This document shows, one piece after another, positions 19,175 through 64,000 of a stretch of 64,000 nucleotides of DNA; within the stretch, counting starts at the first letter, position 1; every line of letters begins with the position of its first letter. The stretch is taken from NCBI GenBank assembly GCA_024276465.1, contig JAJRXD010000018.1, positions 18,997 to 82,996 of the forward strand, given 5' to 3'. The notes under the pieces are model-generated. The model made no database searches, had not been told where the DNA came from, and saw only the letters and a list, made by a program, of their open reading frames with translations. The position numbers were made by a program, and so were the translations under genes. Origin of the DNA: Deltaproteobacteria bacterium. Its GTDB lineage: Bacteria; Desulfobacterota; WTBG01; CAIYCZ01; CAIRTM01.

Positions 19175-19181
19175 ATGTTTT

Positions 19182-32638: not shown

Positions 32639-34132
32639 CTACTCAACAGTAAAAGAAACCCCGCTGCAGTTGTCGACGCTGACATTATAGGTTCCCTTTG
32701 CAGTTCCCCATATCATTACAAGGGCCTGTACTGTCTGGCTGTCTATGGTGTTTGAGTAAAGAACTGTAATGCCGTCTGCTTCAAAATCAATTACACTGTC
32801 AGGGCTGAAGCCTGACGACTCATTTCCCGTGATTGTTACCATAATAAATCTGGGCAGGATGCCAAGGCCGGTTTTGGCACTGGCCGGAGCGATGCTGCTG
32901 AGATTGCACCCCTGTTCTTCCCTGATTTGAAGTTTATTCTCATACCATATCATCTGATCTTCCTGCAGACCGGCAAGTACTACATCCAGGTCCCCGTCTC
33001 CGTCAAGGTCATCCAGTGAAACATCACCGGGATCTCCGTACTGCCCGGTAACATCAGTGTCATTGTCAACAAAATCATCGAGAAGATGCTCTGTCCAGGA
33101 CTGCTGGTCCATGTCATATTCAAACCATGAAATTTTATCAATGAAGGCCCCGGAAATCACAGCATCATCTCTTCCGTCTCCGTTAATGTCCCCGGTGTAT
33201 ATATCCGTGCCATTGTAATCTTCACTTACAAAATTTTTTGTCCAGCTCCCGCCATCCTGCGAAGGGGCTTCATACCAGTAGATACCAGGGGTGTTGAGGG
33301 TTGAAACCAGCACATCTTTCCTGGAGTCCCCGTTTACATCCAGGCAGTTAACATCAAATGCCAAATCCAGATCCCCGTCGATCACAGTCCTGTCGAACAT
33401 AATTTCCTCACCATTGAAATCCACATCAATCCAGGAGACGTTTCCGCGCAGTTTTGAATTGATTATATCTGTTTTACCGTCTCCATTAAGATCGTCCAGG
33501 TAGATAGCGCTTCCTGTTCCCTCAGGCAGAGGCAGCCTTTCCCAGACAGACCCGTCCTGTGCAGGATCTTCAGGGTTGACAAATATAATGCTTCCCTCAC
33601 TTCCTCCTGCTACGATATCTTCCCTTCCGTCCTTGTTTACGTCCAGAGTATACATCTTAAAATAGGCATTATCGTTATCTGAACTTACCAGAAAACGCTG
33701 CCACTCACCTTCAGGTTCTGCAGGTGCCTTAAACCAGTACACCTTTCCTCCTAATGAGCCAACGCTGCCAGTGCCTGCAACCACATCATTGTAGCCGTCA
33801 TTGTCTATGTCTGATACTGCGACACCATTTATATTGGCGATAGGGTCATCTTCAAGAGCACTTGAACTGATAATAAACTGTTCCCATTGAGAACCCTGGT
33901 TGAGGTTGTTTCTAAACCACGCTACTTCAGAATTGAACGGCCCGGGATGTTCGTTAGTTGTTGAGACAACATCAAGATCTCCATCCCCGTCCATGTCTTT
34001 TACATACAGGTAAATCGGACTGGTCTGCTCAGCAATAACATGTTTTTCCCAGCCTTCTGCAACAGAAGCAGAGGCATCATTCGGGACAAAGCAGTAAACA
34101 GCACAAAGCAGTAATAAAAATTTTTTAATCAT
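32639..34132 (-). CDS. FG-GAP repeat (integrin-alpha-like beta-propeller) secreted protein
   Basis: Signal peptide. Repeated D.DGDG.D..V Ca-binding FG-GAP motifs. The ORF extends to 34189; the start at 34132 (MIKKFLLLL) is likelier. Confidence 0.7.
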   Translation of the reverse strand: MIKKFLLLLCAVYCFVPNDASASVAEGWEKHVIAEQTSPIYLYVKDMDGDGDLDVVSTTNEHPGPFNSEVAWFRNNLNQGSQWEQFIISSSALEDDPIANINGVAVSDIDNDGYNDVVAGTGSVGSLGGKVYWFKAPAEPEGEWQRFLVSSDNDNAYFKMYTLDVNKDGREDIVAGGSEGSIIFVNPEDPAQDGSVWERLPLPEGTGSAIYLDDLNGDGKTDIINSKLRGNVSWIDVDFNGEEIMFDRTVIDGDLDLAFDVNCLDVNGDSRKDVLVSTLNTPGIYWYEAPSQDGGSWTKNFVSEDYNGTDIYTGDINGDGRDDAVISGAFIDKISWFEYDMDQQSWTEHLLDDFVDNDTDVTGQYGDPGDVSLDDLDGDGDLDVVLAGLQEDQMIWYENKLQIREEQGCNLSSIAPASAKTGLGILPRFIMVTITGNESSGFSPDSVIDFEADGITVLYSNTIDSQTVQALVMIWGTAKGTYNVSVDNCSGVSFTVE

Positions 34133-34435
34133 TGTTTTCTCCTTTTTGGTTATACAATTCTTCCTTTGTTGGGTTGTGTCTGCACACAATACAAAAAACC
34201 GCTGCTTTTTACAAGATATTTCATCTTCTTTTCAGAAGAGCAGGGCAGGGGCTGTGCCCTGGCTTTTTTTCAGCTGAATATCCCATTGTTTTTTTCTGCA
34301 GCCTCAATTTACTCCATGTTTTCAGCCACATACACTATTTAGTTGATTTTATCCTGATTTGCCTGTATGTATAGTAAAATCTTATCGCTTCCTGTTCAGC
34401 ATTTTTGATACCACACAACACAAGGAGAAAAAAGA

Positions 34436-40890: not shown

Positions 40891-42423
40891 GTGGATTTAC
40901 CAAATACGGATTATGTATTCAAACCTCGCCCGTTTAGAGATATAAAACTCTGGAAAAACGTAAGTGATGAGCAGTGGTGTGATCCTTACTGGCAGATCAG
41001 CAATATTATCAGAGATGTTGACAGCCTGGGGGAAATAATAGACCTTAACAGTCACCAGAAATTTGCCATCAAGGAAACACTGCAGAGAATGAAAGACGAT
41101 GGCAAAGAGCCCATGAGAATAACACCGTATTATGCATCTCTTATGGCTCAGGACCCTTTTAACCCGTCATATCCGGATGGGGCTGCGCTGGAAGGGAAGG
41201 TTGACCCTGTTTTCTGGCAAAGCGTTCCAACACCTGCTCATTTTCTTTTTCCCATGGCTGGCATTGAACAGTCCATGGCTGAAGCAGAAAGAAGCTATGG
41301 GGCCTTTTATCAGAGATATCCTAACAGGGGTGCACTTTTTGTCTGTGAAAATACCTGCTGTGCCTCGTTTTGCATGCATTGTCAGCGAACAAAATCCCTT
41401 GACACAACAAACAAAATTACATTGGAGGACATTAATAAAGGCCTCTTTTATGTTTCAGAAAACCGGAATATTCATGAGGTTCTGGTTACAGGGGGCGATG
41501 CGCTGCGCATTAATGAGGAAAGATTCAGATATGTTATCGGAGAGCTTTGCAAGCTGCCAAACGTGAGGGGGATAAGGATTGCCACCAGAGTCCCTGTTGT
41601 ACTGCCCATGGGTGTTACGGAAAAAATGCTGGATACTGTTGATGAAGCAATAAAGAAACATTCCAATGGCCACAGAAAAAATGTTTATTTTATGACACAT
41701 GTCAACCATTATAATGAAATTACCCGTGATTTCGTGGACTGCATACAGAGAATAAAATCGCATGGATATACAATAAGAAACCAGACTGTTTTTCTAAACC
41801 ATGTTAATGCAGACTTTTACACTCTTGCAGAAACTTTCCGCAGGATGTGGTGGGCAGGGGTAGCACCTTATTATCTTCTGCAATGCCACAATGAGAAGGG
41901 CCTGACACATTTTATTGCCCCCATCCATCTGGGAAAGTTTCTTGCAAAACATTTACATGGATGGATATCAGGCACATGCAGGCCAACATATTCTGCAAAC
42001 CTTGAAGGCGGGGGCGGCAAGGTTACTTTAACTCCAAGCGGATATGATATCAGTGATGACGTAACAGAAATGGAAACAAAGAGATCAAAACTTTCTGTAA
42101 CAGTACATACCTGGGATGACAGAATCATCAAAGGCTATGAGGCTTTGGGAAGGGCTACGCAGGAACAGTATGTTAATGCCAGAAAAACCATGGACGCATT
42201 TCTTGGAAGACCCAATATCTTTAAGCCTGCGGTTATAATTGTTGATGAAAACGGTAACCCTGTCAGAATTACCCGCAGGAGGCTTCCCGAGCTGACAAAT
42301 GCTCTCAAGGCTGATTTGTTAGGCTACAACATGGAGTCTGATAACATGCCCCTGATAAACCCTGCAGAAAAAAAAGAGGACCTTGACAGGGCTTATCACA
42401 AGTCGGAATACTGCAAGCAATAA
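40891..42423 (+). CDS. KamA-family radical SAM aminomutase-like protein (long form)
   Basis: CxxxCxxC radical SAM cluster motif CASFCMHC in a KamA-like context. At 510 aa it is roughly 90 aa longer than typical lysine 2,3-aminomutases. Confidence 0.55.
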   Translation: MDLPNTDYVFKPRPFRDIKLWKNVSDEQWCDPYWQISNIIRDVDSLGEIIDLNSHQKFAIKETLQRMKDDGKEPMRITPYYASLMAQDPFNPSYPDGAALEGKVDPVFWQSVPTPAHFLFPMAGIEQSMAEAERSYGAFYQRYPNRGALFVCENTCCASFCMHCQRTKSLDTTNKITLEDINKGLFYVSENRNIHEVLVTGGDALRINEERFRYVIGELCKLPNVRGIRIATRVPVVLPMGVTEKMLDTVDEAIKKHSNGHRKNVYFMTHVNHYNEITRDFVDCIQRIKSHGYTIRNQTVFLNHVNADFYTLAETFRRMWWAGVAPYYLLQCHNEKGLTHFIAPIHLGKFLAKHLHGWISGTCRPTYSANLEGGGGKVTLTPSGYDISDDVTEMETKRSKLSVTVHTWDDRIIKGYEALGRATQEQYVNARKTMDAFLGRPNIFKPAVIIVDENGNPVRITRRRLPELTNALKADLLGYNMESDNMPLINPAEKKEDLDRAYHKSEYCKQ

Positions 42424-49566: not shown

Positions 49567-50505
49567 GTGATGAAAGTACTTATAACTGGTGGAGCAGGTT
49601 TTATCGGTTCACACGTGGCAGACCTTTTAATCAAAGATGGCCATCAGGTTATTGTAATTGATGACCTGTCTAAGGGAAAAAAGGAAAACCTGCCTGAAAA
49701 TGTATCTTTTTACCCTGTCAGTATTACTGATCCTTCAATTGCAGAGATTTTCAGCGATGAAAAGCCGGAAACAGTCATACACCATGCTGCACAGGTTTCA
49801 GTTGTTTCCTCGGTTAAAGACCCTGCAGGGGATATGGAAATAAACATAAAGGGAACCATTTGCCTTCTTGAAGAAGCTGTAAAACACAAGGTTGAGAAAT
49901 TTATTTTTGCTTCAACAGGTGGTGCAGTATATGGTGAGCAGGACTGCTTTCCTGCTGACGAAAATCACCCTTTAAAACCGATCAGTCCTTATGGGGCAGG
50001 CAAACTCTCTGCTGAAAAATACCTTTATTTTTATCACAAAGCATATGGCCTTAAATATACTGTGCTTCGTTACAGTAATGTGTATGGACCCAGGCAGGAC
50101 CCCCACGGCGAGGCTGGTGTGGTTGCTGTTTTCACTCAGAAAATGCTTAATGGTGAAGAGGTGGTAATTAATGGAACAGGGGAGCAGACCAGAGATTTCG
50201 TTTTTGTTAAAGATGTTGCCATGGCAAACAGGATGGCATTAGACCATGATTTCAATGGTGAGCTTAATATCAGCACTGGAACAGAAACAACAATTAATCA
50301 GCTGTTCTCCCTGTTAAAACTGATTATCCCGACCAGTATTTCTGACAAGCATGGGCCGGCACTTTCAGGAGAACAATTGCGCAGTGTGCTTTCGTGGGAA
50401 AGGGCTGAAAAGGAATTGGGGTGGAAGCCCCGGATTAAATTAAGGGAAGGGATTGAACAAACTGTTTTGTTCTTCAAAAACGGTGTTCCGGAAATCTCAT
50501 CATGA
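49567..50505 (+). CDS. NAD-dependent epimerase/dehydratase (GalE-like)
   Basis: GGAGFIGSH Rossmann motif and a YxxxK catalytic dyad (YGAGK). Confidence 0.75.
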   Translation: MMKVLITGGAGFIGSHVADLLIKDGHQVIVIDDLSKGKKENLPENVSFYPVSITDPSIAEIFSDEKPETVIHHAAQVSVVSSVKDPAGDMEINIKGTICLLEEAVKHKVEKFIFASTGGAVYGEQDCFPADENHPLKPISPYGAGKLSAEKYLYFYHKAYGLKYTVLRYSNVYGPRQDPHGEAGVVAVFTQKMLNGEEVVINGTGEQTRDFVFVKDVAMANRMALDHDFNGELNISTGTETTINQLFSLLKLIIPTSISDKHGPALSGEQLRSVLSWERAEKELGWKPRIKLREGIEQTVLFFKNGVPEISS

Positions 50506-50786
50506 CAGACAAAAAAAACGGCAAAATATTGAGCCTTGATGAAATCAGGGCTAAAAAAAGGTCTGCAGTCATTCAACTCCTTAAAGACTCAAAAAAAGTG
50601 GCTGCTGCAATTTCCACCAGGACCTGCCTTATTTGCAGTGCAAAAAAGGCCTGTGTCAGCAAGTCAGGAGTCTGTTCATATTGTTTTGAAAAAGAGTTGA
50701 CACAGGAAGAGAAAAAAATTGCTGAAAGAGAGGCAAAACACAAAATAATTAAAATTCAGGTTGTTGATGACCGGTGGGAACAATAA
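50502..50786 (+). CDS. hypothetical protein
   Basis: 94 aa with Cys pairs CLIC...CSYC. ATGA-coupled to the epimerase. Confidence 0.3.
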   Translation: MTDKKNGKILSLDEIRAKKRSAVIQLLKDSKKVAAAISTRTCLICSAKKACVSKSGVCSYCFEKELTQEEKKIAEREAKHKIIKIQVVDDRWEQ

Positions 50787-50949: not shown

Positions 50950-51615
50950 ATGTTAGTATCAGGAAATGATATGATTAAAAACATTATTTTTATAGCTGTT
51001 TTTAGCGCTTTATCATTTATATCGCTTGATGCTCATTCTTATTACTTTTTAATAGAACTTAAAAATGGTAATGTCATAGAAACAGAAAAATACTGGGAAG
51101 AGGGTAAATATATCCGTTTTTTTGTAAACAGCGGATCTGCAGGCATTCCAAAGAGAATGATAAGCAATATTGTAAAAAATGACGGAATCTTAAGTGCCGC
51201 TGACTTTTCCTATGAATCTGAATCAGCAGAGGAAGATGAGGCATATGAAGAATTTTCCCGGTTGGACAGCCGGAACCAGTCTGATATTATTGAAGATATA
51301 AAGGACAGAATAAGTGTTATAGAATCAAACATAGCGAACCTGAAAACAAACAAACAGACCTACATTAACCAGAAAGAAAGATATCTGAGAGATAAAGAAA
51401 GGGCAGAGGAAAGGTATGAAAAAATAAAAAACTCTCCTTTTATGACCTCAAAAGATCTTAAGGTAAGGACTGAACTGGAACTGAGCAAAAAAATGGATGC
51501 TGAAAAAAAGATTGAGGATGTTGAAAGGCGGATCCAGACAACCGGGAAGATGTTAGAGAGCCAGGAAAGGATGCGGGAGCGGTTGCAGGACGAGCTGGCC
51601 CAGCAAAAAAAATAA
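50950..51615 (+). CDS. hypothetical secreted coiled-coil protein
   Basis: Signal peptide. C-terminal charged coiled coil. Confidence 0.35.
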   Translation: MLVSGNDMIKNIIFIAVFSALSFISLDAHSYYFLIELKNGNVIETEKYWEEGKYIRFFVNSGSAGIPKRMISNIVKNDGILSAADFSYESESAEEDEAYEEFSRLDSRNQSDIIEDIKDRISVIESNIANLKTNKQTYINQKERYLRDKERAEERYEKIKNSPFMTSKDLKVRTELELSKKMDAEKKIEDVERRIQTTGKMLESQERMRERLQDELAQQKK

Positions 51616-51673: not shown

Positions 51674-53215
51674 CTATAAGGATTGATCCAAAATCCCCTT
51701 AACATCATAAAGCACTTCACCCCTGCTGCGACTTATCACAACTTTCCCCGCCATTTCAGGAGGCAACAGATTCAGAGACGGTAAAACCGTAAACAATGGA
51801 CGTTCATGCAGGATGTCAGATAAAAATGCCGGGTTTTGCCTGCTCCCGGATTTCAGCTTTTCAGAATTCAGAATTAAAACTCCCGGGGCAAAACCATCCC
51901 TGTGCCGGACAACAAGCAGAGGATAAAGGGAAGTGCTGTCGCAGACAATAACACCGTCTGGTGATGCCTGCCTGAGCGCTGCTGCTGCAAACTGCTCTGC
52001 GGACTTCTCATTGTTCTTCCATGGAATTATCCAGTATCTGATTTCATCTCGGAAGGGACGTTCTCTTTCACGTTTTATTGTCAGTCCTGAAAAATTGATA
52101 ACTGCAGGAGCAGCTGCATAAACTGCAGGCGGTATCACAACAGAAACCATACAGCCACAAACTATCATGTTACGCCATTTTTGAGATTTATCAGCAAGTA
52201 CTGAGATGCCAATGGAAGAAGCAATTGCTGTCATTAGCAATGATGGCAGGAAAAAAGTAAACTGGTCCGGCACAGAGTACCTGAGAAAAAAAACAAATTC
52301 AATTACTGTTATTATTCCCAGTGATGATGCTAAAACACTTCCAAGGCGTCTTTTCATGTTCCACCAGCCCACTGCAGCAAGGGGCAGCGTAAAATTTATA
52401 AAGTTCAGGGATGTCAGACCTGCATTTGCCTTCATGAAATGCCATCTGGTTTTTGTGTTGAGAACTTCAGAAGCGAATTTGCCAAAAAGGGCAGAGTGGA
52501 TGGCTCCCGGGATATCACCGGTTTTTATGGCTGTATCAATTATCAGTGAAATATATGGCAATGCCCCTAAAGCATAGGCTGTGAATGAAACCGGAATTGT
52601 CCACAAAGGGATTTTTTTTCTGGCAGCTAAAAATATCAGAACCATGCAATAGACAGGCAGCGGAAGAAGGGCAAGGTTGTGAATACCCAGATTAATCCCG
52701 TTTAAAAGAAAAAGTGCGGCACCTGAGTACCATTTCGGCTTGAAGATCAAATTAATGAACAGAATCAGTTCTCCTGTCATAACAGCAAGTTGCCAGGAGT
52801 AACTTTCTGTTATTGTTGCCAGCCACCAGGTTGTGTGGGTTACGGAAAGCATTAATGCTGCGGAAAATCCTATCCACCTCCTGTTGGTCAAAAGTGATGC
52901 AATGACCGCCAGATTGGCCAGAGCAATGGACATTGCAATGCCACTTGAAAAATTCAGCATGGTGGTAATGTCACCTGTTGAAATCAGCATAAACAGCCGG
53001 CCAATGGCAATAAACAGAGGATGGGCTGATGCCAGGCCCAACTCTCCGGTGTAATCACCATTAATTATTCTCCACTGGTAAGCTCCGCTATCCTGCCAGC
53101 AGGCACCAGCCTGGACCGTAAAAAAATACAGCAGGGCAAACAGGCAGAATGAGCCGCACCACAGCATTTTAACCTGTAAGGGGCTGTTTTGTTTGTCAGT
53201 TGACAGACAGTTCAT
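51674..53215 (-). CDS. polytopic membrane protein, GT-C-like (DUF2723-like?) with C-terminal soluble domain
   Basis: More than 10 predicted TM helices, then a ~150 aa soluble tail. The start overlaps the cobO stop (ATGA). Confidence 0.35.
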   Translation of the reverse strand: MNCLSTDKQNSPLQVKMLWCGSFCLFALLYFFTVQAGACWQDSGAYQWRIINGDYTGELGLASAHPLFIAIGRLFMLISTGDITTMLNFSSGIAMSIALANLAVIASLLTNRRWIGFSAALMLSVTHTTWWLATITESYSWQLAVMTGELILFINLIFKPKWYSGAALFLLNGINLGIHNLALLPLPVYCMVLIFLAARKKIPLWTIPVSFTAYALGALPYISLIIDTAIKTGDIPGAIHSALFGKFASEVLNTKTRWHFMKANAGLTSLNFINFTLPLAAVGWWNMKRRLGSVLASSLGIITVIEFVFFLRYSVPDQFTFFLPSLLMTAIASSIGISVLADKSQKWRNMIVCGCMVSVVIPPAVYAAAPAVINFSGLTIKRERERPFRDEIRYWIIPWKNNEKSAEQFAAAALRQASPDGVIVCDSTSLYPLLVVRHRDGFAPGVLILNSEKLKSGSRQNPAFLSDILHERPLFTVLPSLNLLPPEMAGKVVISRSRGEVLYDVKGILDQSL

Positions 53216-55012: not shown

Positions 55013-57124
55013 ATGATAAAAAAGGGTATGATTTCAGGACTGTCAGCGGGCCTTGTTGTCAGTTTGTTTGACGGCCTTTTCATGCTCATGCCTAACACTT
55101 ATGTGCCGGTGAGCTACCCCTTTTTCCTGATTATTTTCAATGTCTTTTTCTGGACGACTGCGGGCAGCACTGCAGGATTGCTTCTATGTCTTTTTGTCCG
55201 GAACAGCAAAAAAGCCGGAGCCAATGAAAATCGCTGCTGGGTTGTTTTCTTCCTTTTTCCCTTTGCTGTAATCTATGGGCTTGCAGGAAGAATGACCATA
55301 GATAAGCTCATCTCCCCGGCTTTTGATCATCACCTCTCTTTTTTATGGGTTTTTCTTATTCTTTTATTCCTGTTTTTTTTCAGAGCAAAGGAGACTGGAA
55401 AAGCCCCTGCTGTTTTCTATATCCCTGAAATATTCACCTTTGCTGCTCTTTTCATGTTCTGCTCAAACACAGCAAAAATACCGGGCCTTTCTATAATTTT
55501 TAACATGCTGTTTTCTCAGGGCATCAGTGACATCAACACCCGCATGCTGTTACACACGCGCTACTTAACGGTTGTATATATTACTGGTGTTTTGCTGATT
55601 ATGTGTGGTTACTTCCTGTTTTTTTTCAAGTTTAAACCTGTAATAAAAAAACAGTTTCAGGTTATACTGGCATTGGCCTTATTTGTACTGCTGTTCTTAT
55701 CTGCTCTTTTTTCAGGAAACCGCAGCAGTTTTTACACCATCAATTATCCGTCCGTTACTTCGATGCAGGCACCCCGCCCCCCATCAATACCTTATGTAAT
55801 ACTGATAGTTCTTGATACGGTTCGTGCAGACCGCCTGGCTGTTTACGGCAATAGCGGAGTTGCGGAAAACCTTGAGAAGTTTTCCAGAGATGCCCTTGTT
55901 TTTGAAAACTGCATTGCATCTTCACCCTGGACGCTTCCCTCCCACGCGTCTCTTTTTACCGGTTTGTATCCTGTTGAGCACGGTGCCCACCATGTTTTAA
56001 ATAAAACAATGTGGTCTTCCAGGGCACTTGATGATAAGTTTACGACACTGGCAGATATATTTAAAAGCAACGGATACCTGACATCTGCTGTTGTTTCAAA
56101 CTGCGCCCTTTTGCACAAAGGTTTTAACCTGAATAAGGGGTTTCAGATCTACGACTGTACAAAAAACATTGGCGCAACACTTAAATTTCCATTCAGGCCG
56201 CTTTTACCTTTTTTCAGCTACCTGACAAATGTTATGCCAAAAAATTTTCTGTTTTACCGGCCGGCTGAGGAGATAAACAGTAATGCCGCCTTTTTGCTGA
56301 AAAAAATGAAACCCGATCCTTTTTTTCTGTTTCTTAACTACATGGATGCTCACGCACCGTATGTTCCTCCCCGGCCATTTAACAGCCTTTTTACTGACAC
56401 AGCATTTCCTCAGTTAAAAAGAATCAGGCAGCAGATCTGTAATTTTATTAAACTTCCGCAAAAAGAAACATGGGATTCATTCATGCTGTCCCAGTATGAT
56501 GGAGAAATAGCATATCTTGACCATTATTTAGGGGAACTGTTTTCACAATTAAAAAAAATGAAGCTTTACGATCCATCCCTTATAATAATCACTGCTGATC
56601 ATGGGGAGCTTTTTGGTGAACATGGATTGAACGGGCATTATTGCGCCATGTATGAAGAAGTATTAAAAGTCCCTCTGATGATAAAATTTCCATTTAACAG
56701 AAAAACCGGCAGGGAAAAAAACAGGATTGGGTTACATGATCTTTTTTCAACAATACTTTCGATTTGTGACCTGCCCATACCTGATGGTGTATCAGGCAGG
56801 GCCAGTTATGATATCCCCGGACCTGTTGCAGCAGCAGAGTTCTATGATTCCAAGATGGGCCGGCACCGTGTTATTTACGATGGAAAATATAAATATATGA
56901 AATACAGCAGAAAGAAAAAGCCTGAGCTGTATGATCTTCTGAAAGACCCCTCTGAACAGGTTAATTTAACTGAAAAACTTCCTGAAACAAGGGCTGAAAT
57001 GGAAAAAACCCTTGCAGAGTGGAACAGGAAACATGTTGCAAGATTCAACCCTGATTCTCAGGGCAAGACGTTTTTTTCCCGGGAAATTGAGGAGGGCCTT
57101 AAGGCACTGGGATACATAAGGTGA
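55013..57124 (+). CDS. membrane-anchored sulfatase-superfamily (alkaline-phosphatase fold) protein, LtaS/EptA-like, paralog 1
   Basis: N-terminal ~250 aa multi-TM domain. Sulfatase-fold domain with LDTVRADRL metal motif. The formylglycine CxPxR motif is replaced by TLPSH (Cys to Thr, Arg to His). Confidence 0.65.
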   Translation: MIKKGMISGLSAGLVVSLFDGLFMLMPNTYVPVSYPFFLIIFNVFFWTTAGSTAGLLLCLFVRNSKKAGANENRCWVVFFLFPFAVIYGLAGRMTIDKLISPAFDHHLSFLWVFLILLFLFFFRAKETGKAPAVFYIPEIFTFAALFMFCSNTAKIPGLSIIFNMLFSQGISDINTRMLLHTRYLTVVYITGVLLIMCGYFLFFFKFKPVIKKQFQVILALALFVLLFLSALFSGNRSSFYTINYPSVTSMQAPRPPSIPYVILIVLDTVRADRLAVYGNSGVAENLEKFSRDALVFENCIASSPWTLPSHASLFTGLYPVEHGAHHVLNKTMWSSRALDDKFTTLADIFKSNGYLTSAVVSNCALLHKGFNLNKGFQIYDCTKNIGATLKFPFRPLLPFFSYLTNVMPKNFLFYRPAEEINSNAAFLLKKMKPDPFFLFLNYMDAHAPYVPPRPFNSLFTDTAFPQLKRIRQQICNFIKLPQKETWDSFMLSQYDGEIAYLDHYLGELFSQLKKMKLYDPSLIIITADHGELFGEHGLNGHYCAMYEEVLKVPLMIKFPFNRKTGREKNRIGLHDLFSTILSICDLPIPDGVSGRASYDIPGPVAAAEFYDSKMGRHRVIYDGKYKYMKYSRKKKPELYDLLKDPSEQVNLTEKLPETRAEMEKTLAEWNRKHVARFNPDSQGKTFFSREIEEGLKALGYIR

Positions 57125-57225
57125 GGGCAGTCCCGATATTTATCGGGACAATGACAGATTTGAACACAGGTTTTTTCATATCACCACGAAGAGCACGAAG
57201 AAAAAGAATATTAACCGCAGGCAAA

Positions 57226-57297
57226 TGCTCATGCGAGCGAAAAACAGAACTGATATCGCGCCTGAAGGCGCTCCTACTCCGGACTTTTCGTTCAGGC
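57226..57297. repeat. intergenic GC-hairpin repeat element, copy 1
   Basis: Unit AACTGATATCGCGCCTGAAGGCGCTCCTACTCCGGACTTTTCGTTCAGG. A 40-nt core is exactly inverted at 59463-59502. A 27-nt direct copy lies at 59522-59548. Confidence 0.8.
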
Positions 57298-57343
57298 ACT
57301 GTAAGTCTTTTGAAAAGTCTGGTCCCCTTGGTCAGGCTTTTTG

Positions 57344-58039
57344 CTAATCTGAATATCCGGCAGGATCAGCCAGCCCGGCCTCCCTGAAACCCTTTAGCCT
57401 CAGCCTGCAACTGTCACAGTTTCCGCAGGCCATGCCCTCTGCAGAGGGATCGTAACAGCTGTGGGTTATGCTGTAGTCGATGCCGAGGCTGATGCCTTTT
57501 TTTATGATTTCAGCTTTTGTCATCTGAATCAGGGGTACCCTGATTTTTATTTTTCTCCCCTCAACTCCTGCCCTGGTTGCAAGCCGGGCCATGGCCTCAA
57601 AGGCCCTGATATACTCAGGCCGGCAGTCAGGATACCCTGAATAGTCAACTGCATTGACACCGATAAAAATGTCGGAAATTTCCAGCACCTCTGCCCATGC
57701 AAGGGCATAGGAAAGAAAAACAGTATTGCGGGCCGGTACATATGTTGCGGGAATTTCTTTTGATGCTTCCTCAAGGTTCCTGTTTTTTGGTATATCTGTT
57801 TTATCAGTCAGGGCTGAGCCGCCTATTTTGGCAAAATCAAGATCTATGATCATCTGCTTTTCAACCTTGAACAAATCAGATACTTTTCTGGCCTGGCGCA
57901 GCTCTGTTTCGTGCCTTTGTCCATACCTGAAACTAAGGCTGTACAGGCTGTAACCCTCATTTTTTGCCATTGCCATAACAGTTGTTGAGTCCAGGCCGCC
58001 ACTGCATAAAATGATTGCACTTTTATTAGTTGTTGTCAT
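57344..58039 (-). CDS. queC: 7-cyano-7-deazaguanine synthase
   Basis: [13 protein letters not shown]-loop and C-terminal Zn-binding Cys cluster (CGNCDSC). Confidence 0.85.
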
Positions 58040-58052
58040 TTTTTCATCCAGG

Positions 58053-59426
58053 CTACTTCACTAATGCATTGTGAATTGCCCTGATAGCCCTGTCTGCATG
58101 TTCATCTTCTATAACACAGGAAATGTTTATTTCTGAAGCACCCTGGGAAATCATTTCAATATTAATAGCCTCATCTCCAAGAACAGAAAACATCATTCCT
58201 GAAAGCCCAACGCAATGTTTCTGGCCTCTTCCCACCAGACTTAAAATTGCCATGTTTTTGTTTACAGATACTGTTCCTAAAAGCTCCAGCTCATGGATGG
58301 CACTGTCCAGATTTTCTTCGCTTTCAACAGTCATGGAGATATTAACTTCTGAAGTGGAAATCAAATCAATAATAATTCCATATTTTGCCATGATATTAAA
58401 TATTTTTGCCATGAAACCATAGGCCATCAGCATGCGATTGGAGTTAATATTAATAACGGAAATATTCCTTTTTACTGTAACAGCAGTTGCAGGCTTTGCT
58501 GCAGTACCTTCGCTGATGTGAGGGTCGATAACTGTTCCAGGCAGGTCGGGTTTTAATGTATTTTTTATCCGTATAGGTATGCTGGCTCTCATAACCTGCT
58601 CCATGGTAAAAGGATGTATTACTTCAGAGCCATAGTATGTAAGCTCTGCAGCCTCCTCGGGTGTTATGCTGGGAAGAACTCTGGCCTCTGCAACCTTTCT
58701 GGGATCAGCAGAATAGACGCCATCAACCTCTTTCCATATCTGCAGTTCCCTTGCATTAATTGCAGCAGCTGACAGTGCTGCGGTAAGATCGGTATAGCCG
58801 CGTCCAATGCTCTGAATAATGCCGTTTGGTACAAATCCGAAGTAACCTGTCAATACGGGCACTTTGTTTCCGCAATTAAGAATCTTTTTTTTCAGGCGGC
58901 TTTGAACGTATGAATAAAAATCCAGGGTGGTTTCCTGAAAAGGTTTGTCAATAATTGAGTCCAGGTTAACATATTCAGCATCTATGCCCATACTGTTGAG
59001 CAAACCTGAAAAAATACAGGCTGAAAGCTTCTCACCGGTTCCTATAATAACATCCTGAGAACGCGGGGATATTTCTCCGATAACACTGATAGCATCAAGA
59101 AATGATTTTAAGGACTTCAATTCTTCTTTAACTTCCTCAAGTATCTGATCCTTTGTTTCTCCCTTGATTATCTGTTCGATAGTAGAGATGTGGTATTTTT
59201 CAAGGTCTTCAACAATTTTAAAATAAGACCCCTTATTCAGGGCAGCGGTTGCTGCTTCCAGCAACCTGCTTGTGGTGCCCTCGGCCTTCACATAGCTGCT
59301 CATTGCGGATAGAGCAACAACCACCCTGTTTTTCTCAATGCTCTGCTTTACGATATTTGCAACACTGTGCATACGTTCAGGTTTGCCAATACTTGTGCCA
59401 CCGAATTTCTGTACAATAAATTCCAT
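58053..59426 (-). CDS. lysC: aspartate kinase
   Basis: VQKFGGTS N-terminal kinase motif. C-terminal tandem ACT domains. Confidence 0.85.
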
Positions 59427-59462
59427 AACTTCCCCTGATAATTATATTTTAAGAAACTGTTT

Positions 59463-59552
59463 TAATTAGTTCCTGAACGAAAAGTCCGGAGTAGGAGCGC
59501 CTTCAGGCGCGAAAAACCTCAACTGATATCGCGCCTGAAGGCGCTCCTGCAG
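59463..59552. repeat. intergenic GC-hairpin repeat element, copy 2
   Basis: Inverted core plus direct core form a 19-bp perfect stem (AGGAGCGCCTTCAGGCGCG/CGCGCCTGAAGGCGCTCCT) with an 18-nt loop. Confidence 0.8.
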
Positions 59553-59815
59553 AAAATTATTTTTCGGGTTCCAACCTGAATCCGGGTTTTCGGTCAGACA
59601 CTATTATAGGGTTTACTCTTATCAGAGTCAAACAGAAGTGCTTTTTGCGAAATCATGGTTAATGACCGGTTAATTTGATTATTCAAAAAAAGATTAACAT
59701 GTGATATTTTATAATCCCGGATTTTTGCAGCAGGGGTCGCAGCAAGGGCTTTTGCCCCAGAGTCCCGATTTCAACAGGACTGCAGATTCCGGGTTAAAAT
59801 CAAGGAAGATAAATT

Positions 59816-61435
59816 ATGCATAATGGCCCCATGATAAAAATCAGAATAACATTGTTCTATTTGATCCTTCTTTTTCTTTTTGCATACCCCTGTGTTTTTC
59901 TACCCTTCTGGTCTGACCAGGCTATCTTTGCCTACATCGGTGATATTATCAACAGGGGCGGGCTGCCCTACATGGATGCCTGGGATCTCAAGCCACCTGT
60001 TATCTATTATCTGTACAGCCTGGGTTTGAAAATATTCGGCCATTCCATGGCTGGGTTGAGATTTTTTGATTACATGTATTCGATTGTAACGCTTTTTGCA
60101 GTTTATCACCTGGGAACATTGCTGTTCTGCAGGCAGTCAGGCAGGCTTGCTGCAGTAACTCTGGGAATCCTCTATTTTTTTACTAATGATTTTACGAGTC
60201 TTTCACAGTGTGAAAGCTTTATGATCCTTCCAATGGTTTTGTCAGTTTATTTTTGCTGTTCAGGGATGAAGAGGCAAAGCATATCCCTGTTTTTCTGTTC
60301 CGGGATTTTGGCCGGAGTTGTTTTTATGACAAAGCCAACAGGGATACTGGTAATTATCCCTGTTGTTCTGTATATATTTTTCAAAACCTGTTGCCAGGAG
60401 AAAAAGCCTGATGTTCGTTTGATCTTTTCAAGGCTTTCAGCAGTTTTTTCAGGCCTGGCTGTTTTTGCGGCTGTTGTTTTTCTATGGCTGTATAAAAACG
60501 GATTACTTTCTGAATTTATGTATACGCTTTTCGTCTATGATGCAGGCCATTTTCGTTCTGCACTTGCTATCAAAAAAGATTATGGACATGTAAGGTTATC
60601 CGGCTTTATGCGCAGGTATCTTTTTGTATTGATCCCTGCATTTGCCGACTTTGTTTTGAAAAAAGACAGAAACAGATGGCCGGAAAATATTCTTCTTTAC
60701 AGCTGGGCTCTAATGGCGGTTTCAGGATTCCTTTTGCAGGCAAGATTTTATCCCTACCATCTGTTGCCCGTGATAGCCCCTCTTTCCCTTCTTGGAGCCC
60801 AGGGGTTTTTAAGCCTGTGGTCTGATCCTGAAATGAATAAAAAAATTTATTTTTTCAAAAAAAAAGTTCTTTTTGCCATTATTGTTCTGGCTTTCATGTT
60901 TGGTGCCATCCGCTCGCACATGCTGCTGACCTGGCATTTTACCAGTTCCCTTGTTCGTGGAAACTTTTCAGAAAAATTTTATGATCGTTTTTTTAAATTT
61001 GAAAGCCTTGGATTTTCAATTAATACAACTTCAAAAGCAGCACAGTATATCAGAGAAAACAGTAAAAAAGAGGATCTCATTTTTATCTGGGGGTTCCAGC
61101 CCCTTGTTTATTTTCTTTCGGAAAGATATGCGCCATCACGGTTTTTTTTTAATGCACCTCTTGTGGCACAGTTTAATGAAAAAAGAACCTCCTGGAGGGA
61201 GAGCCTGATTGCTGATTTAAGGAAAAATCCTCCGGAAATAATCCTTGTTGTAAAAAATGACATACTGCAAAATCAGTTAATGTCTAATACGGCCAGGGAT
61301 TCTCTTGCTCTTTTAAATGAATTTCCAGAACTGCTGAAATTAATTGAAGATGATTACCAGCTGGAAAGAATAATTGATAATTTTTTTCTTTATCGCTACA
61401 TCTGTGACAAGGATGATAAAATTACAACACACTGA
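59816..61435 (+). CDS. GT-C-fold glycosyltransferase-like membrane protein (ArnT/PMT-like)
   Basis: About 12 TM helices. First periplasmic loop YMDAWDLKPP carries an acidic motif as in GT39/GT83. Confidence 0.5.
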   Translation: MHNGPMIKIRITLFYLILLFLFAYPCVFLPFWSDQAIFAYIGDIINRGGLPYMDAWDLKPPVIYYLYSLGLKIFGHSMAGLRFFDYMYSIVTLFAVYHLGTLLFCRQSGRLAAVTLGILYFFTNDFTSLSQCESFMILPMVLSVYFCCSGMKRQSISLFFCSGILAGVVFMTKPTGILVIIPVVLYIFFKTCCQEKKPDVRLIFSRLSAVFSGLAVFAAVVFLWLYKNGLLSEFMYTLFVYDAGHFRSALAIKKDYGHVRLSGFMRRYLFVLIPAFADFVLKKDRNRWPENILLYSWALMAVSGFLLQARFYPYHLLPVIAPLSLLGAQGFLSLWSDPEMNKKIYFFKKKVLFAIIVLAFMFGAIRSHMLLTWHFTSSLVRGNFSEKFYDRFFKFESLGFSINTTSKAAQYIRENSKKEDLIFIWGFQPLVYFLSERYAPSRFFFNAPLVAQFNEKRTSWRESLIADLRKNPPEIILVVKNDILQNQLMSNTARDSLALLNEFPELLKLIEDDYQLERIIDNFFLYRYICDKDDKITTH

Positions 61436-61451
61436 ACCAGGATAAAAGAAG

Positions 61452-63584
61452 ATGCTGAAAAAGCTGACAATTAAAGGACTTGTTTTGGGGACAGCAGCTG
61501 GTCTTCTGGTAACCCTGTTTGACGGATTTTTCATGTTAACTCCCAAGGCAGCATACATTCCGTACAGCTTCCCGCTGCTTCTTCTCAGCTTTAATATTCT
61601 TTTCTGGATGATGTTTGGCTGGCTGTCCGGTTTTTCCTGCTGGATATTTTTTCGCAGAAAAGAGGGCCTTCGTGAAAAGGAGTATTTTTACAGAGTTGTT
61701 TTTTTTCTTGCACCGTTTGCCATGATTTACGGCCTGGGAGGAAGGCTGCCTACTCCCCACTGGCCTGCGGCTCACCCGCCGCCGGTTTTTGACCACCACC
61801 TGTCTTTTATCTGGGTATCTGTTTTTCTTCTGTTTCTGCTTTTTTATTACAGGAAAAGAAAAGGGGTAAAGTTTTTGTCCTGCTGTTCTTTTCTGCTTGA
61901 CCTGACAGTAATTATTCTGCTTTTTCAGTTCTGCTCAAACATTTCTTGTATAGGAATAATTTCCAGATTATTTCCGGAGAATCTGAAGATTGTTTATACA
62001 GGTGGAGTTCTGTTAATTGCCGGATTTTATTTTCTGTTTTTTTATGCAGTGAAGTTATTTGAAAAAGATGATTCAGCAGGGAGAAATTATTTTGCCTGCT
62101 GGGTTCTGTTTTTTGCTGTAGTTGTTTTATTGCCCTGTTTTTTCCTGCGGGGTGGTAAAAACCCCGGTAATTATTTCCCTCATTCTGATTTAACCAGGGC
62201 AGAAGAAACAGCAAAGCGTCCGGATGTCATACTTATTGTCCTTGATACTGTTCGCGCTGACCGAATGTCTGTTTACGGCAATCAGGGCACCACTGTTAAT
62301 CTTGAGAAGTTTTCCAGAGATGCCCTTGTTTTTGAAAACTGTATTGCATCTTCCTCCTGGACCCTTCCATCACACGCATCCATGTTTACCGGTTTATCTC
62401 CCTCTGAACACGGAAGCCATACTGTTTTAGGCTCAAAAAAAGTTAAATGGTTTGGCGGACATCCTGCCCCCCGCCCCCTTTCTGATAAATTTGTGACCCT
62501 GACAGAAGTTTTCAGGTATAATGGCTATAAAACAGCTGCAATAATATCCAATTTCGGCTTTCTTGCTCCATGGGTCAACATTAAGCAGGGCTTTCAAATC
62601 TATGATTCCCGCAACAATATAGGTATTGTTAACATTGCCTATCCCTTCCGCCCGCTGCTTTACCTGTTTTCTTATGTTTCCAATGTGTCTCCAAAAATTA
62701 TCAGTTCTTTCAGGACTGCAGATGACATAACCGGAGAAACCCTGAAGCTGTTAGACAAAAGAGCCTTTTCCCCCCTCTTTCTTTTTCTTAACTACATGGA
62801 TGCCCATGCTCCAAATTATCCGCCCCGCCCCTTTTCCGGATACTTTCCTGACACACCATTCCCACAGCTTTACAGGTTTAAACAGTACATGCTCAAGTTC
62901 ACGGGAAAACTCAGCAAAAAGTCATGGGATTCATATATGCTTACACAATACGATGCAGAGATAGCTTTTCTTGATGACCAGCTTGGCAGGTTGTTTTCCC
63001 ATCTGAAGGATATTGGAATTTACAACTCTTCTCTTATTATTGTCACATCAGATCACGGGGAGCTTTTTGGTGAGCACGGGCTTTACGGACATAGAAATGC
63101 CATGTATGAAGGTAATGTAAGGATACCCCTTATTATAAAATTCCCTTTCAATGAAAAGGTTGGACGCGAAAAGGCCATGATAACACTTGCAGACCTTTTT
63201 CCCACTGTTCTTTCAATTTGTGAACTCCCGGTTCCTGAGGGTGTTTCAGGAAAAGCATTCGGGAATTCTTCTGCACCTGTTGTTTCAGAACTGTATGATG
63301 CTGATACAGGACTACAACAAATTTTATATGACGAAAAATACAAATACATGGTATATGAACACAGCAGGGGTGATGAACTCTATGATCTGGGCAATGATCC
63401 GATGGAACAGGAAAATTTAGCTGAAAAGCTTCAGGATGTCTCTTTGATGATGAAAAAAAAATTGAAAGAATGGAATAAAATACACAGGCCTAAATATAAT
63501 CTTTTATACAAAATCCAGAAGCCGCTTTCCAGGGATACTATAAAAGGGCTGGAAGCCCTGGGATACATGCAGAATGATGAGTGA
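61452..63584 (+). CDS. membrane-anchored sulfatase-superfamily protein, LtaS/EptA-like, paralog 2
   Basis: Paralog of the 55013 ORF by eye, with shared blocks LFDGFFML, FFLAPFAMIYGLGGR, FDHHLSF, LDTVRADRM and CIASSSWTLPSHAS. Same Thr/His substitution in the FGly motif. Confidence 0.65.
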   Translation: MLKKLTIKGLVLGTAAGLLVTLFDGFFMLTPKAAYIPYSFPLLLLSFNILFWMMFGWLSGFSCWIFFRRKEGLREKEYFYRVVFFLAPFAMIYGLGGRLPTPHWPAAHPPPVFDHHLSFIWVSVFLLFLLFYYRKRKGVKFLSCCSFLLDLTVIILLFQFCSNISCIGIISRLFPENLKIVYTGGVLLIAGFYFLFFYAVKLFEKDDSAGRNYFACWVLFFAVVVLLPCFFLRGGKNPGNYFPHSDLTRAEETAKRPDVILIVLDTVRADRMSVYGNQGTTVNLEKFSRDALVFENCIASSSWTLPSHASMFTGLSPSEHGSHTVLGSKKVKWFGGHPAPRPLSDKFVTLTEVFRYNGYKTAAIISNFGFLAPWVNIKQGFQIYDSRNNIGIVNIAYPFRPLLYLFSYVSNVSPKIISSFRTADDITGETLKLLDKRAFSPLFLFLNYMDAHAPNYPPRPFSGYFPDTPFPQLYRFKQYMLKFTGKLSKKSWDSYMLTQYDAEIAFLDDQLGRLFSHLKDIGIYNSSLIIVTSDHGELFGEHGLYGHRNAMYEGNVRIPLIIKFPFNEKVGREKAMITLADLFPTVLSICELPVPEGVSGKAFGNSSAPVVSELYDADTGLQQILYDEKYKYMVYEHSRGDELYDLGNDPMEQENLAEKLQDVSLMMKKKLKEWNKIHRPKYNLLYKIQKPLSRDTIKGLEALGYMQNDE

Positions 63585-64000
63585 TACAATTCAATATGAT
63601 AAGGGCTCCTTCAGGGACCCGTCCGGGCGCGTTTTTTATTACAAAGATGAGGTGTACCGCTGCCTGAACATGGATGCCTTTTCCCTCATGCAGGAGATTG
63701 AAAAAAACGGCACCCTGAGCAGGCTCACAGAGCTTGGCTATTTAATACCCACTGAACTTGTTCCAGAGGGTACTTCACTGCACAAGACACTGCAGAATGA
63801 GGTGCCCCTTGCTACCCGTTTTTTACACCACGAGAAGGTTCCTGTAATTTCCTACCCGTATGAATGGTCATTTGCAATGCTTGCTGAGGCTGCAAAGCTG
63901 CAGCTGAAATTACAGCTTGAACTCATTGAAAAAGGCTACAGCCTGAAAGATGCTTCAGTGTTCAATGTTCAGTTTATTCACTGCAGGCCGGTTTTTATAG
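63577..64000 (+). CDS. hypothetical protein (possibly a SAM-dependent methyltransferase), 5' partial at window end
   Basis: Open frame runs to the window end. The ATG overlaps the upstream stop by 8 nt. The SYPYEWSF block faintly recalls a methyltransferase family. Confidence 0.3.
   Translation, partial: MSDTIQYDKGSFRDPSGRVFYYKDEVYRCLNMDAFSLMQEIEKNGTLSRLTELGYLIPTELVPEGTSLHKTLQNEVPLATRFLHHEKVPVISYPYEWSFAMLAEAAKLQLKLQLELIEKGYSLKDASVFNVQFIHCRPVFI

Follow-up and report, generated by a model that had tools for sequence, protein, structure and literature searches.

Two paralogous membrane-fused sulfatase-fold proteins with a putative threonine nucleophile as candidate phospho-group transferases of the bacterial envelope

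What does a membrane-anchored sulfatase-fold protein do when the position of its catalytic formylglycine is occupied by threonine? This question is raised by two open reading frames (ORFs), here called ORF A and ORF B, which are located on a 64,000-nucleotide stretch of a Deltaproteobacteria bacterium contig (JAJRXD010000018.1, positions 18,997 to 82,996; assembly GCA_024276465.1), hereafter referred to as the window. We consider it highly probable that both proteins are periplasmic phosphoryl-transfer enzymes with a threonine nucleophile, and not sulfatases. More specifically, we propose that they may act as phospho-group transferases at the periplasmic side of the inner membrane and modify an envelope glycan or lipid, a reading to which we assign a probability of roughly 45%.

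ORF A and ORF B are full-length paralogues

BLASTP aligned ORF A and ORF B end to end, across both the membrane and the catalytic domain, with 345 identities over 722 positions (48%, E = 0). The two proteins are full-length paralogues, as had been stated in a preliminary description drawn from the nucleotide letters. They share the motifs W-T-L-P-S-H-A-S-L/M-F-T-G and I-L-I-V-L-D-T-V-R-A-D-R, the latter containing the first metal motif (LDTVRADR) that this description had pointed out. Pfam Sulfatase (PF00884) matched residues ~260-585 of ORF A and ORF B with 126.8 and 134.7 bits, respectively, and SGSH_C, the sulfatase C-terminal subdomain, matched residues ~535-670 with 47.9 and 53.7 bits. 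In addition, residues 262-324 of ORF A matched the Pfam Phosphodiest family of nucleotide pyrophosphatases/phosphodiesterases (NPPs; PF01663) with 51.2 bits against a gathering threshold of 23, but of the 342 profile positions only 1-61 were matched, by the ~60 residues with which the catalytic core begins. The AlphaFold (AF2) model of ORF A had a pLDDT of 90.4 and a pTM of 0.90. The coordinates of both genes, of their domains and of the codons discussed below are given in Table 1.

The active site suggests phosphoryl transfer with a threonine nucleophile

ORF A and a profile of 48 full-length family sequences were aligned to solved S1 sulfatases (phmmer, hmmsearch). We found that Thr307 aligned with the formylglycine Cys/Ser of S1 sulfatases, or with its crystallographic Ala/Ser substitute, and that His311 aligned with the motif Arg, which bears out the earlier reading of T-L-P-S-H-A-S-L/M-F-TG as a formylglycine motif with both residues exchanged. 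Asn363 corresponded to the Lys of 'G-K-W-H-L', His542 to the second conserved Lys or a neighbouring position, His447 to the His of the 'H-x-P' element, and Asp529-His530 to the 'D-H/N' metal ligands. As judged from these alignments, neither the sulfatase nucleophile nor any of the three cationic sulfate-binding residues is retained, the latter having given way to His311, Asn363 and His542.

The replacing residues are strongly conserved. In the family alignment, D268, R271, T307, H311, N363, H447, H530 and H542 were identical in 48/48 sequences, D529 was kept in 47/48, and position 445 was always Asp or Glu. Across 102 catalytic domains from many phyla, H447 and H542 were present in 100% and position 445 was acidic in 100/102, and these three positions had played no part in selecting the set. 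D529 and H530 were also conserved across these divergent domains. The nucleophile position was Thr in 101/102 domains, in a set gathered by the motif itself: the wider-clade scan used P-S-H-A-S-L-F-T-G as its pattern, so the dominance of T-x-P-x-H among the motif-bearing ORFs (101/102, with S-x-P-x-H in 1/102) is expected. Invariance of the putative catalytic residues is the pattern expected of an active enzyme.

The family profile was also aligned to E. coli EptA (from NC_000913.3). The segment 'iLiVLDtvRad' paired with 'ILIVGETSRAE', which places D268 on the metal-binding Glu, and T307 fell on the second Thr of 'G-T-A-T-A-V-S', the EptA nucleophile. Moreover, 'SDHGelfgehglyeH' paired with 'SDHGESLGENGIYLH', indicating that H542 is the homologue of the conserved EptA His located 12 residues past D-H. 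The residues described for MCR-1 are Glu246, Thr285 (phosphorylated in the crystal), Asp465/His466 (Zn1) and His478, and a second zinc site in LptA involves His478 and His395 (PMC5031297). H447 may correspond to MCR-1 His395, as suggested by its position (a strand, then H-x-P-Y) and not by an alignment. D268, D529 and H530 are thus the predicted metal ligands. We hypothesise a second metal site for which D/E445, H447 and H542 are the probable ligands; these would make up an NPP-type bimetallo site (Asp/His/His) and are kept in 100-102 of the 102 domains. Altogether, the residue inventory would fit a mono- or bi-metallo phosphoryl-transfer enzyme with a Thr nucleophile.

The catalytic domain has an S1-sulfatase scaffold

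Curated models placed the two proteins outside each of the named families. The NCBIfam arylsulfatase model PRK13759 gave 142.6 / 155.7 bits, below its cut-off of 481; EptA gave 27.0/23.7 bits against a cut-off of 561, the P_eth_NH2_trans domain model 23-37 against 500, and LtaS 19 bits against 970. When the ORF A model was searched against the Protein Data Bank (PDB) with Foldseek, all 50 matches listed were S1 sulfatases or phosphonate monoester hydrolases (PMHs), the top ones with E about 1e-20 and TM(target) about 0.7, and neither LtaS nor EptA was among these 50. S1 sulfatases and S1_0 PMHs (PDB 7oz8, 7stt, 2vqr, 2w8s) were also closest by sequence, with profile E values down to 1.5e-49. 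The 77-residue nucleophile segment taken by itself matched S1 sulfatases best (E 1.5e-6). NPPs came next and aligned with the whole segment (2gsn from Xanthomonas, E 0.002; ENPP1/3/4), and the best 60 PDB matches listed included neither an LtaS nor an EptA chain; the NPP chains matched solely this segment of the catalytic domain. We conclude that the catalytic domain descends from the S1-sulfatase/PMH branch of the alkaline-phosphatase superfamily. Sequence and model together suggest an S1-sulfatase/PMH-type scaffold with a C-terminal subdomain, in which the active site has come to resemble that of EptA and NPPs by convergence.

With S1 sulfatases and PMHs, ORF A and ORF B share the N-terminal alpha/beta core followed by an SGSH_C-type subdomain, the x-P-S-x-x-x-x-x-T-G scaffold, the H-x-P histidine and the S-D-H-G metal ligands. 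Unlike S1 sulfatases, they have Thr for formylglycine, His for the motif Arg, Asn and His for the two Lys and Thr for the second Asp of 'DD', they carry a fused seven-transmembrane (7-TM) domain, and no maturase was found among the ORFs of at least 150 aa in their window. Like EptA, LptA, EptC and MCR-1, they combine a polytopic N-terminal membrane domain with a periplasmic PF00884-superfamily domain, a Thr nucleophile, acidic and D-H metal ligands and a His 12 residues after D-H (PMC5031297). They differ from EptA and MCR-1 in that similarity amounts to 27-28 bits, the seven-helix membrane domain is unrelated, the C-terminal subdomain is of the S1 type, and the motif reads T-L-P-S-H, not G-T-x-T-A. 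The EptA-type membrane domain consists of five TM helices. The glycerophosphotransferases LtaS, OpgB (MdoB) and GacH, as well as BcsG, are membrane-anchored extracytoplasmic metalloenzymes with a Thr/Ser nucleophile. They transfer the head groups of phospholipids to polymers of the envelope, and their genes commonly adjoin glycan-assembly genes. ORF A and ORF B differ from these enzymes in the membrane domain and in the nucleophile motif, which is T-x-N-x-E in the LtaS type (PMC5066984).

The motif of ORF A and ORF B retains the x-P-S-x core of sulfatases and NPPs, and differs in this from both T-x-N-x-E of LtaS and the G-T-x-T type of EptA. The NPP motif is T-F-P-N-H, and T-x-P-[SN]-H with the same T-G and H-G spacing is NPP-like. 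The likeness to NPPs (PF01663) lies in the ~60-residue start of the core, which holds the metal-binding Asp and the Thr nucleophile; unlike in NPPs, which are soluble or single-pass hydrolases, the remaining catalytic domain and the C-terminal subdomain are sulfatase-like. PbgA/YejM is also an inner-membrane protein with a periplasmic sulfatase-fold domain, and weak NCBIfam YejM matches were found. YejM itself acts mainly as a regulator and its active site is degenerate or atypical, whereas all putative catalytic residues are invariant in the ORF A/B family. The preliminary description had compared the pair to the Thr-nucleophile phosphotransferases LtaS, EptA and MdoB. The kinship in chemistry is supported by the residue inventory and the EptA alignment, whereas membership of the LtaS/EptA/MdoB families is not supported by the curated scores, Foldseek, the motif type, the membrane domain or the C-terminal subdomain.

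A seven-helix membrane domain is restricted to this fusion

In the AF2 model, the N-terminal 245 residues of ORF A form seven TM helices (residues 2-25, 35-62, 72-91, 108-126, 133-155, 174-206 and 214-244), with a short helix (157-167) between TM5 and TM6, and hydropathy analysis likewise gave seven. Net charges were averaged per segment over the 48 family sequences and evaluated by the positive-inside rule. The N-terminus (+1.6) and loops 2-3 (+1.2), 4-5 (+3.2) and 6-7 (+4.0) are predicted to face the cytoplasm, and loops 1-2 (−0.2), 3-4 (0.0) and 5-6 (+0.8) the periplasm. Seven TM helices together with this alternation therefore predict a cytoplasmic N-terminus and a periplasmic catalytic domain, consistent with the multi-TM N-terminal region noted earlier. 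Most of the conserved residues of the membrane domain (D20, N43, W47, F84, Y88, G89, D105, H107, S109, W112 and N152) were located at periplasmic helix ends or in the loop preceding TM4, and all of these except F84, Y88 and G89 make up the conserved polar residues at the periplasmic helix ends. This would put them directly beneath the catalytic domain, at the level of the lipid head groups in the outer leaflet of the inner membrane.

Pfam gave no domain match in residues 1-255. A model of the membrane domain alone (pLDDT 87.3) found no match in the PDB by Foldseek, the best E value being 1.0 and the highest TM-score among the matches listed 0.29. We then identified only 85 matches to the 7-TM domain in an exhaustive hidden Markov model search of 1.84 billion representative proteins; these were either sulfatase-fold fusions of 652-753 aa or short proteins of 47-451 aa, which are probably fragments, and the domain was not found in any other architecture in this search. 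This distribution suggests that the two domains work as a unit. The 7-TM domain thus appears to be a narrow, previously undescribed membrane domain that functions together with this catalytic domain alone.

Relatives, wider clade and phylogeny

Full-length relatives show 38-54% identity and are nearly all from metagenomes; those with names belong to Thermodesulfobacteriota/'Deltaproteobacteria' metagenome-assembled genomes (MAGs) and carry public labels such as 'sulfatase-like hydrolase/transferase' and 'arylsulfatase A-like enzyme'. A scan of one genome per species revealed at least 465 loci encoding relatives of the catalytic domain, and in the 80 loci kept most matches comprised the catalytic domain only. 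This wider T-x-P-S-H clade includes Acidobacteriota, Planctomycetota, Gemmatimonadota, Chloroflexota, Myxococcota and Nitrospirota, and its members have 3-7 N-terminal hydrophobic segments, 0-1 such segments (proteins of 423-560 aa) or C-terminal extensions. A catalytic-domain relative (32% identity) is also present on contig L078, which bears the label of a Klebsiella pneumoniae MAG; this label looks doubtful for the clade and may reflect mis-binning.

Paralogues are the rule in this clade. Tandem arrays are common: the contigs L014 (five consecutive genes), L040 (four), L024 and L039, which come from MAGs of Gemmatimonadota, Thermoanaerobaculia and others, carry arrays of 3-5 T-x-P-S-H genes. 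Two to four paralogues were also present on contigs of the 7-TM subgroup, and paralogue expansion is a trait of the entire clade. In a neighbour-joining tree (no bootstrap), ORF A grouped with P0002, P0004, P0005 and others, and ORF B with P0030 and P0031. The two genes are in all likelihood ancient paralogues, since they belong to different subclades; a recent tandem or segmental duplication was rejected on account of this placement and of the 48% identity. With such an origin their positions on either side of queC and lysC carry no special meaning, and the arrangement, which had at first been called odd, is a multi-copy occurrence of the kind that is normal in this family.

Gene neighbourhood of ORF A, ORF B and their relatives

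The GT-C glycosyltransferase encoded directly upstream of ORF B has multiple TM segments, and its best NCBIfam match, a weak one, is ArnT. Its N-terminal loop has an Asp and K-P-P motifs, which we presume to be significant. The stop codon of this gene lies 16 nt before the start of ORF B, and a promoter/terminator scan, which gave only weak consensus matches overall, found no terminator-like site in this gap; the two genes are therefore probably co-transcribed. The gene overlapping the end of ORF B is probably the third gene of this operon. Its first 142 aa gave no Pfam or NCBIfam match and no homologue in the fetched loci. On the other side, 1.8 kb upstream of ORF A, lies the gene of a second GT-C-like polytopic protein (TMEM260-like) with at least seven hydrophobic segments, which showed no homology to the first GT-C by BLAST and is a possible partner. 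It is separated from ORF A, together with an epimerase gene, by cobO and ispH. Homologues of this epimerase were identified on contigs L001, L083 and L084.

Table 1. Coordinates of ORF A, ORF B and other features of the window, followed by features on contigs of relatives (contig named with the coordinates)
Feature	Coordinates	Strand	Remarks
ORF A	55013-57124	+	703 aa; 7-TM domain and periplasmic Thr-type sulfatase-fold domain
ORF A membrane domain (residues 1-244)	55013-55744	+	seven TM helices
ORF A catalytic domain (residues 260-703)	55790-57121	+	S1-sulfatase-like fold with C-terminal subdomain
ORF A codons	D268 55814-55816; T307 55931-55933; H311 55943-55945; N363 56099-56101; D445 56345-56347; H447 56351-56353; D529-H530 56597-56602; H542 56636-56638		putative active-site residues
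ORF B	61452-63584	+	710 aa; architecture as in ORF A
ORF B domains	TM ~61452-62159; catalytic ~62220-63581	+	
ORF B codons	D265 62244-62246; T304 62361-62363; H308 62373-62375; D534-H535 63051-63056; H547 63090-63092		putative active-site residues
queC	57344-58039	-	between ORF A and ORF B
lysC	58053-59426	-	between ORF A and ORF B
GT-C glycosyltransferase	59816-61435	+	PMT_2/ArnT-like, 539 aa; PF13231 71 bits, cut-off 26.1
Probable third operon gene (start)	63574-64000 (starts 63574/63577)	+	overlaps last 8-11 nt of ORF B; runs off the window
TMEM260-like/DUF2723 protein	51674-53215	-	GT-C-like, polytopic, 513 aa; PF11028 26.3 bits, cut-off 24.2
NDP-sugar epimerase/dehydratase	49567-50505	+	GalE/RmlB-like; Pfam Epimerase 214.7 bits; GalE 182 bits, below cut-off
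Cys-rich protein	50502-50786	+	94 aa; between epimerase and TMEM260-like gene; no family match
Protein with charged, coiled-coil-like C-terminal half	50950-51615	+	221 aa; N-terminal hydrophobic segment; no family match
PAPS-synthesis operon	18413-22102	-	CysD-like PAPS_reduct 21221-22102; CysN-APS kinase fusion 19182-20987; PHP-domain protein 18413-19174
KamA-family radical-SAM aminomutase	40891-42423	+	510 aa; TIGR00238 205 bits, cut-off 199
GH57 + DUF3536 protein	37811-40237	+	808 aa
FG-GAP repeat protein	32639-34189	-	
tRNA gene	23592-23675	+	no other Rfam match in the window reached the gathering threshold
GT-C, GT2 and family gene	L088: 2120-7734		
AMP-ligase/MBOAT gene string	L084: 4160-9492		directly upstream of family gene
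Polytopic ~570-590-aa family	L001: 205-1980; L084: 19471-21183; L086: 2675-4396		8-9 TM; no Pfam match
Tandem arrays of T-x-P-S-H genes	L014: 7907-18703; L040: 3279-11284		

All neighbours of 85 loci with T/H-type motifs were clustered. Recurrent neighbours were GT4 glycosyltransferases (14/85 loci), epimerases (10/85), GT2 glycosyltransferases (8 and 4 in two clusters), Bac_transf priming transferases (8/85), NPP-superfamily proteins (8/85), a polytopic ~590-aa family without annotation (7/85), B12-radical SAM proteins (5/85), AMP-ligases (5/85), PMT_2 proteins (4/85) and WecG (4/85). Neighbour cluster 1 (30 loci) was discarded, as its representative was an antisense ORF inside a sulfatase-fold gene and the entire cluster was judged an artefact. 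The polytopic proteins without annotation (Table 1) may be a further GT-C-like or polymerase family.

On L001, four sulfatase-fold paralogues, two of them with the 7-TM domain, occur together with an AglJ/PpgS-like GT2, an epimerase, an NTP-transferase and YdjC; a weak PMT_2 protein lies directly downstream of one paralogue, and a full-length homologue of the window GT-C (26% identity, E 6e-40) is found next to a family member. On L088, genes of a YfhO-type GT-C (812 aa) and a PgfS/ArnC-like GT2 (318 aa) precede the family gene on one strand, with an 11-bp gap, in a row that looks like a 'three-component glycosylation' module plus a sulfatase-fold enzyme; PMT_2, Glyco_transf_9 (heptosyltransferase family), ALGX and two B12-radical-SAM genes are also present. 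The string upstream of the family gene on L084 encodes an AMP-ligase, a DltB-like MBOAT, which scored 190 bits (cut-off 375), a protein of 284 aa whose C-terminus weakly matched DltD, and a GDSL/SGNH protein. A dTDP-sugar pathway, GT87 and GT2 were found on L089, and a lipid A acyltransferase with two NPP-type proteins on L090. On L083 and L086, 7-11-TM proteins without annotation adjoin the family genes, and on L085 and at the P0015 locus GT2, GT4, methyltransferases and a flippase are encoded.

A homologue of the window GT-C was identified only on L001 among the fetched loci (BLAST). The GT-C partner recurs as a class (PMT_2, YfhO, GT87 and polytopic proteins without annotation), not as one orthologue. 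The recurrent theme of these neighbourhoods is the extracytoplasmic assembly and decoration of envelope glycans. The locus had been described as a lipid or polysaccharide head-group modification system, which fits this context: a GT-C precedes ORF B, and the relatives lie among genes for GT-C, polyprenyl-phosphate-sugar GT2, GT4, MBOAT and lipopolysaccharide (LPS) functions.

Phosphodiest/NPP-superfamily proteins of 485-840 aa, often paired, were observed on L010, L016, L020, L025, L030, L081 and other contigs. The neighbourhoods of the T/H-type genes hence contain a second group of the alkaline-phosphatase superfamily that is uncharacterised. Their motif, where locatable, was T-x-P-A-W (3/14 proteins), so these neighbours were of no help in confirming the NPP-like motif, and the Pfam and PDB NPP matches were used instead.

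Proposed mechanism and alternatives

Based on these results, we propose that the seven-helix domain keeps the sulfatase-fold domain close to the inner membrane on its periplasmic side. A metal-activated Thr307 alkoxide would attack the phosphodiester of a lipid-linked donor presented by the polar pocket at the periplasmic TM ends. This donor could be the head group of a phospholipid or, less certainly, a group linked to polyprenyl-(pyro)phosphate. The attack would give a covalent phospho-threonine intermediate. An envelope glycan or glycolipid, such as LPS core/O-antigen or exopolysaccharide (EPS), would then accept the phospho-substituent at one of its hydroxyls or phosphates; the same glycan may also be built or decorated in the periplasm by the adjacent GT-C glycosyltransferases. 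The donor, the acceptor or the site is probably not the same for ORF A and ORF B. We infer that phosphoryl groups are transferred and that the outcome is transfer and not hydrolysis, as well as the donor, the acceptor and the second metal site, by analogy: every characterised membrane-embedded Thr/Ser enzyme of the superfamily known to us (EptA/MCR-1, LtaS, OpgB, BcsG and GacH) is a transferase.

Several observations weigh against a transferase. The catalytic domain is far nearer to hydrolases (S1 sulfatases, PMHs and NPPs) than to any known transferase, and the 0-1 N-terminal hydrophobic segments of many wider-clade members suit hydrolases. Pfam, NCBIfam, the PDB and the open-access literature yielded no characterised T-x-P-S-H protein. 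In the window, ORF A has no adjacent glycan gene, and neither a phospholipid-metabolism gene, for which the preliminary description had proposed to search, nor a polyprenyl-phosphate sugar synthase was found. Of the eleven family contexts examined, one (L091) lacks envelope-glycan genes nearby.

The main alternative is a membrane-anchored periplasmic phosphohydrolase (a phosphatase, phosphodiesterase or pyrophosphatase) that would use the same Thr/metal chemistry with water as the acceptor, which we regard as possible, if somewhat doubtful. Such an enzyme might strip phosphate or phospho-substituents from lipid A or the LPS core, either ahead of GT-C glycosylation or following it, comparable to LpxE/LpxF followed by ArnT/RgtD-type enzymes, or cleave lipid-linked intermediates or polymer phosphodiesters. 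Besides the hydrolytic nature of the closest relatives by sequence and fold, the end-to-end alignment of the nucleophile segment with NPPs, the Phosphodiest match (51 bits), the NPP-superfamily genes in 8/85 loci, the weak ArnT match of the neighbouring GT-C and the lipid A/LPS-core genes on L088 and L090 agree with hydrolysis. However, a plain anchor would suffice for a hydrolase, whereas here a dedicated 7-TM domain is fused solely to this catalytic domain; a dedicated polytopic domain is the hallmark of the characterised lipid-donor transferases (EptA, LtaS, OpgB and BcsG). Many paralogues inside glycan-assembly loci are also more typical of decorating enzymes. The modules next to some family genes resemble those of lipoteichoic acid (LTA) decoration in Firmicutes, namely the YfhO-type GT-C with a CsbB/PgfS-like GT2 on L088 and, in another genome, the DltB-like MBOAT with AMP-ligase and weak DltD-like protein on L084. 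Together with a Thr/metal active site of the same kind as in LtaS and, by alignment, in EptA, this would suit an LTA-like poly(glycerol/polyol-phosphate) polymerase, or a glycosyl-phosphate transferase using polyprenyl-pyrophosphate-linked donors, in a diderm periplasm, where GT2/GT-C pairs would then glycosylate phosphodiester-linked polymers and MBOAT systems acylate them. We consider this improbable, because the T-x-N-x-E motif is absent, the LtaS score is 19 bits against 970, the Dlt-like and YfhO matches are far under the equivalog cut-offs, and the same modules serve many other glycopolymers; moreover, we know of no LTA-like polymer in these bacteria.

A genuine sulfatase, or a sulfuryl-transferase, with an unconventional nucleophile would agree with the Pfam Sulfatase and SGSH_C domains, the S1-like fold and the public annotation 'arylsulfatase A-like', and a PAPS (3′-phosphoadenosine 5′-phosphosulfate)-synthesis operon 33 kb away and a faint sulfotransferase-like gene near one relative (L090) would be in line with it. 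Yet Thr cannot be converted to formylglycine, and PF00884 includes Thr-type non-sulfatases, of which SulfAtlas covers only the T-x-N-x-E type (SulfAtlas, PMC5066984). Among the ORFs of at least 150 aa in the window, no formylglycine-generating enzyme (FGE) or anaerobic sulfatase-maturating enzyme (anSME) was found, a point of little weight given that a maturase may be encoded elsewhere in the genome. Since Thr cannot form formylglycine, the sulfate-binding Arg and both Lys are replaced and no such maturase gene was found, sulfatase function is very unlikely; the arylsulfatase equivalog score of 143-156 bits against 481 points the same way, and the earlier statement that these are not true sulfatases holds. 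For a sensor or regulator that lacks catalytic activity, its periplasmic sulfatase-fold domain being degenerate, there is a precedent in PbgA/YejM, which demonstrates that membrane-anchored PF00884 domains can be mainly regulatory, and the weak YejM matches recall it. The invariance of the putative catalytic residues in 48 members, and of H447, D529, H530 and H542 in 102 domains, makes such a role scarcely credible for ORF A and ORF B.

Implications

Membrane-anchored Thr enzymes of the alkaline-phosphatase superfamily are already known from the cell envelope. What appears to be new is the T-x-P-S-H clade on an S1 scaffold, for which we found no characterised or solved member, the convergence of its active site with EptA and NPPs, and the fold-orphan 7-TM domain restricted to this fusion. 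It is a speculative idea, and one we hold to be rather unlikely in its full extent, that the T-x-P-S-H proteins are an overlooked class labelled as sulfatases in hundreds of species from at least eight phyla, in which the S1 scaffold was re-tooled to a (bi)metallo Thr phosphoryl-transferase. The Desulfobacterota-type subgroup, with this scaffold joined to a membrane domain whose fold had not been seen before, would then be a third architecture of lipid-donor phosphotransferases, independent of LtaS and EptA, whose donors may be polyprenyl-pyrophosphate-linked and which may add sugar- or polyol-phosphate (teichoic-acid-like) links to the glycans of diderm anaerobes.

Counts of 'sulfatases' underlie inferences of sulfated-glycan degradation in Planctomycetota, Acidobacteriota, Gemmatimonadota and others. 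The T-x-P-S-H clade should be excluded from such counts because its members cannot make formylglycine and have no sulfate-binding residues. The clade would also be a natural case of nucleophile and charge re-tooling within the sulfatase branch of the superfamily, with the scaffold retained. The membrane-fused subgroup is a candidate for new phospho-modifications of LPS or EPS in sulfate-reducer-type bacteria; charge, resistance to antimicrobial peptides, metal binding and biofilm properties are all controlled by modifications of this kind.

Other features of the window

The PAPS-synthesis operon could feed sulfotransferases in such an anaerobe. No connection between it and the sulfatase-fold genes was found. 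It was rejected as a sign of sulfur chemistry at ORF A and ORF B, being 33 kb away and having a cytoplasmic product, while the sulfate-binding residues are absent from both proteins. The protein encoded at 40891, the only radical-SAM protein among the ORFs of at least 150 aa in the window, was considered as an anSME and rejected, as it belongs to the KamA family; it is longer than typical lysine 2,3-aminomutases. Rfam revealed no riboswitch upstream of lysC at the gathering threshold and nothing near the ORF A/B locus. Other genes of the window (rubrerythrin, a multihaem cytochrome, selA and the KamA gene) would fit an anaerobe of the Thermodesulfobacteriota type. FG-GAP/ASPIC proteins, of which the window encodes one with FG-GAP repeats, recur near T/H-type genes in 5/85 loci.

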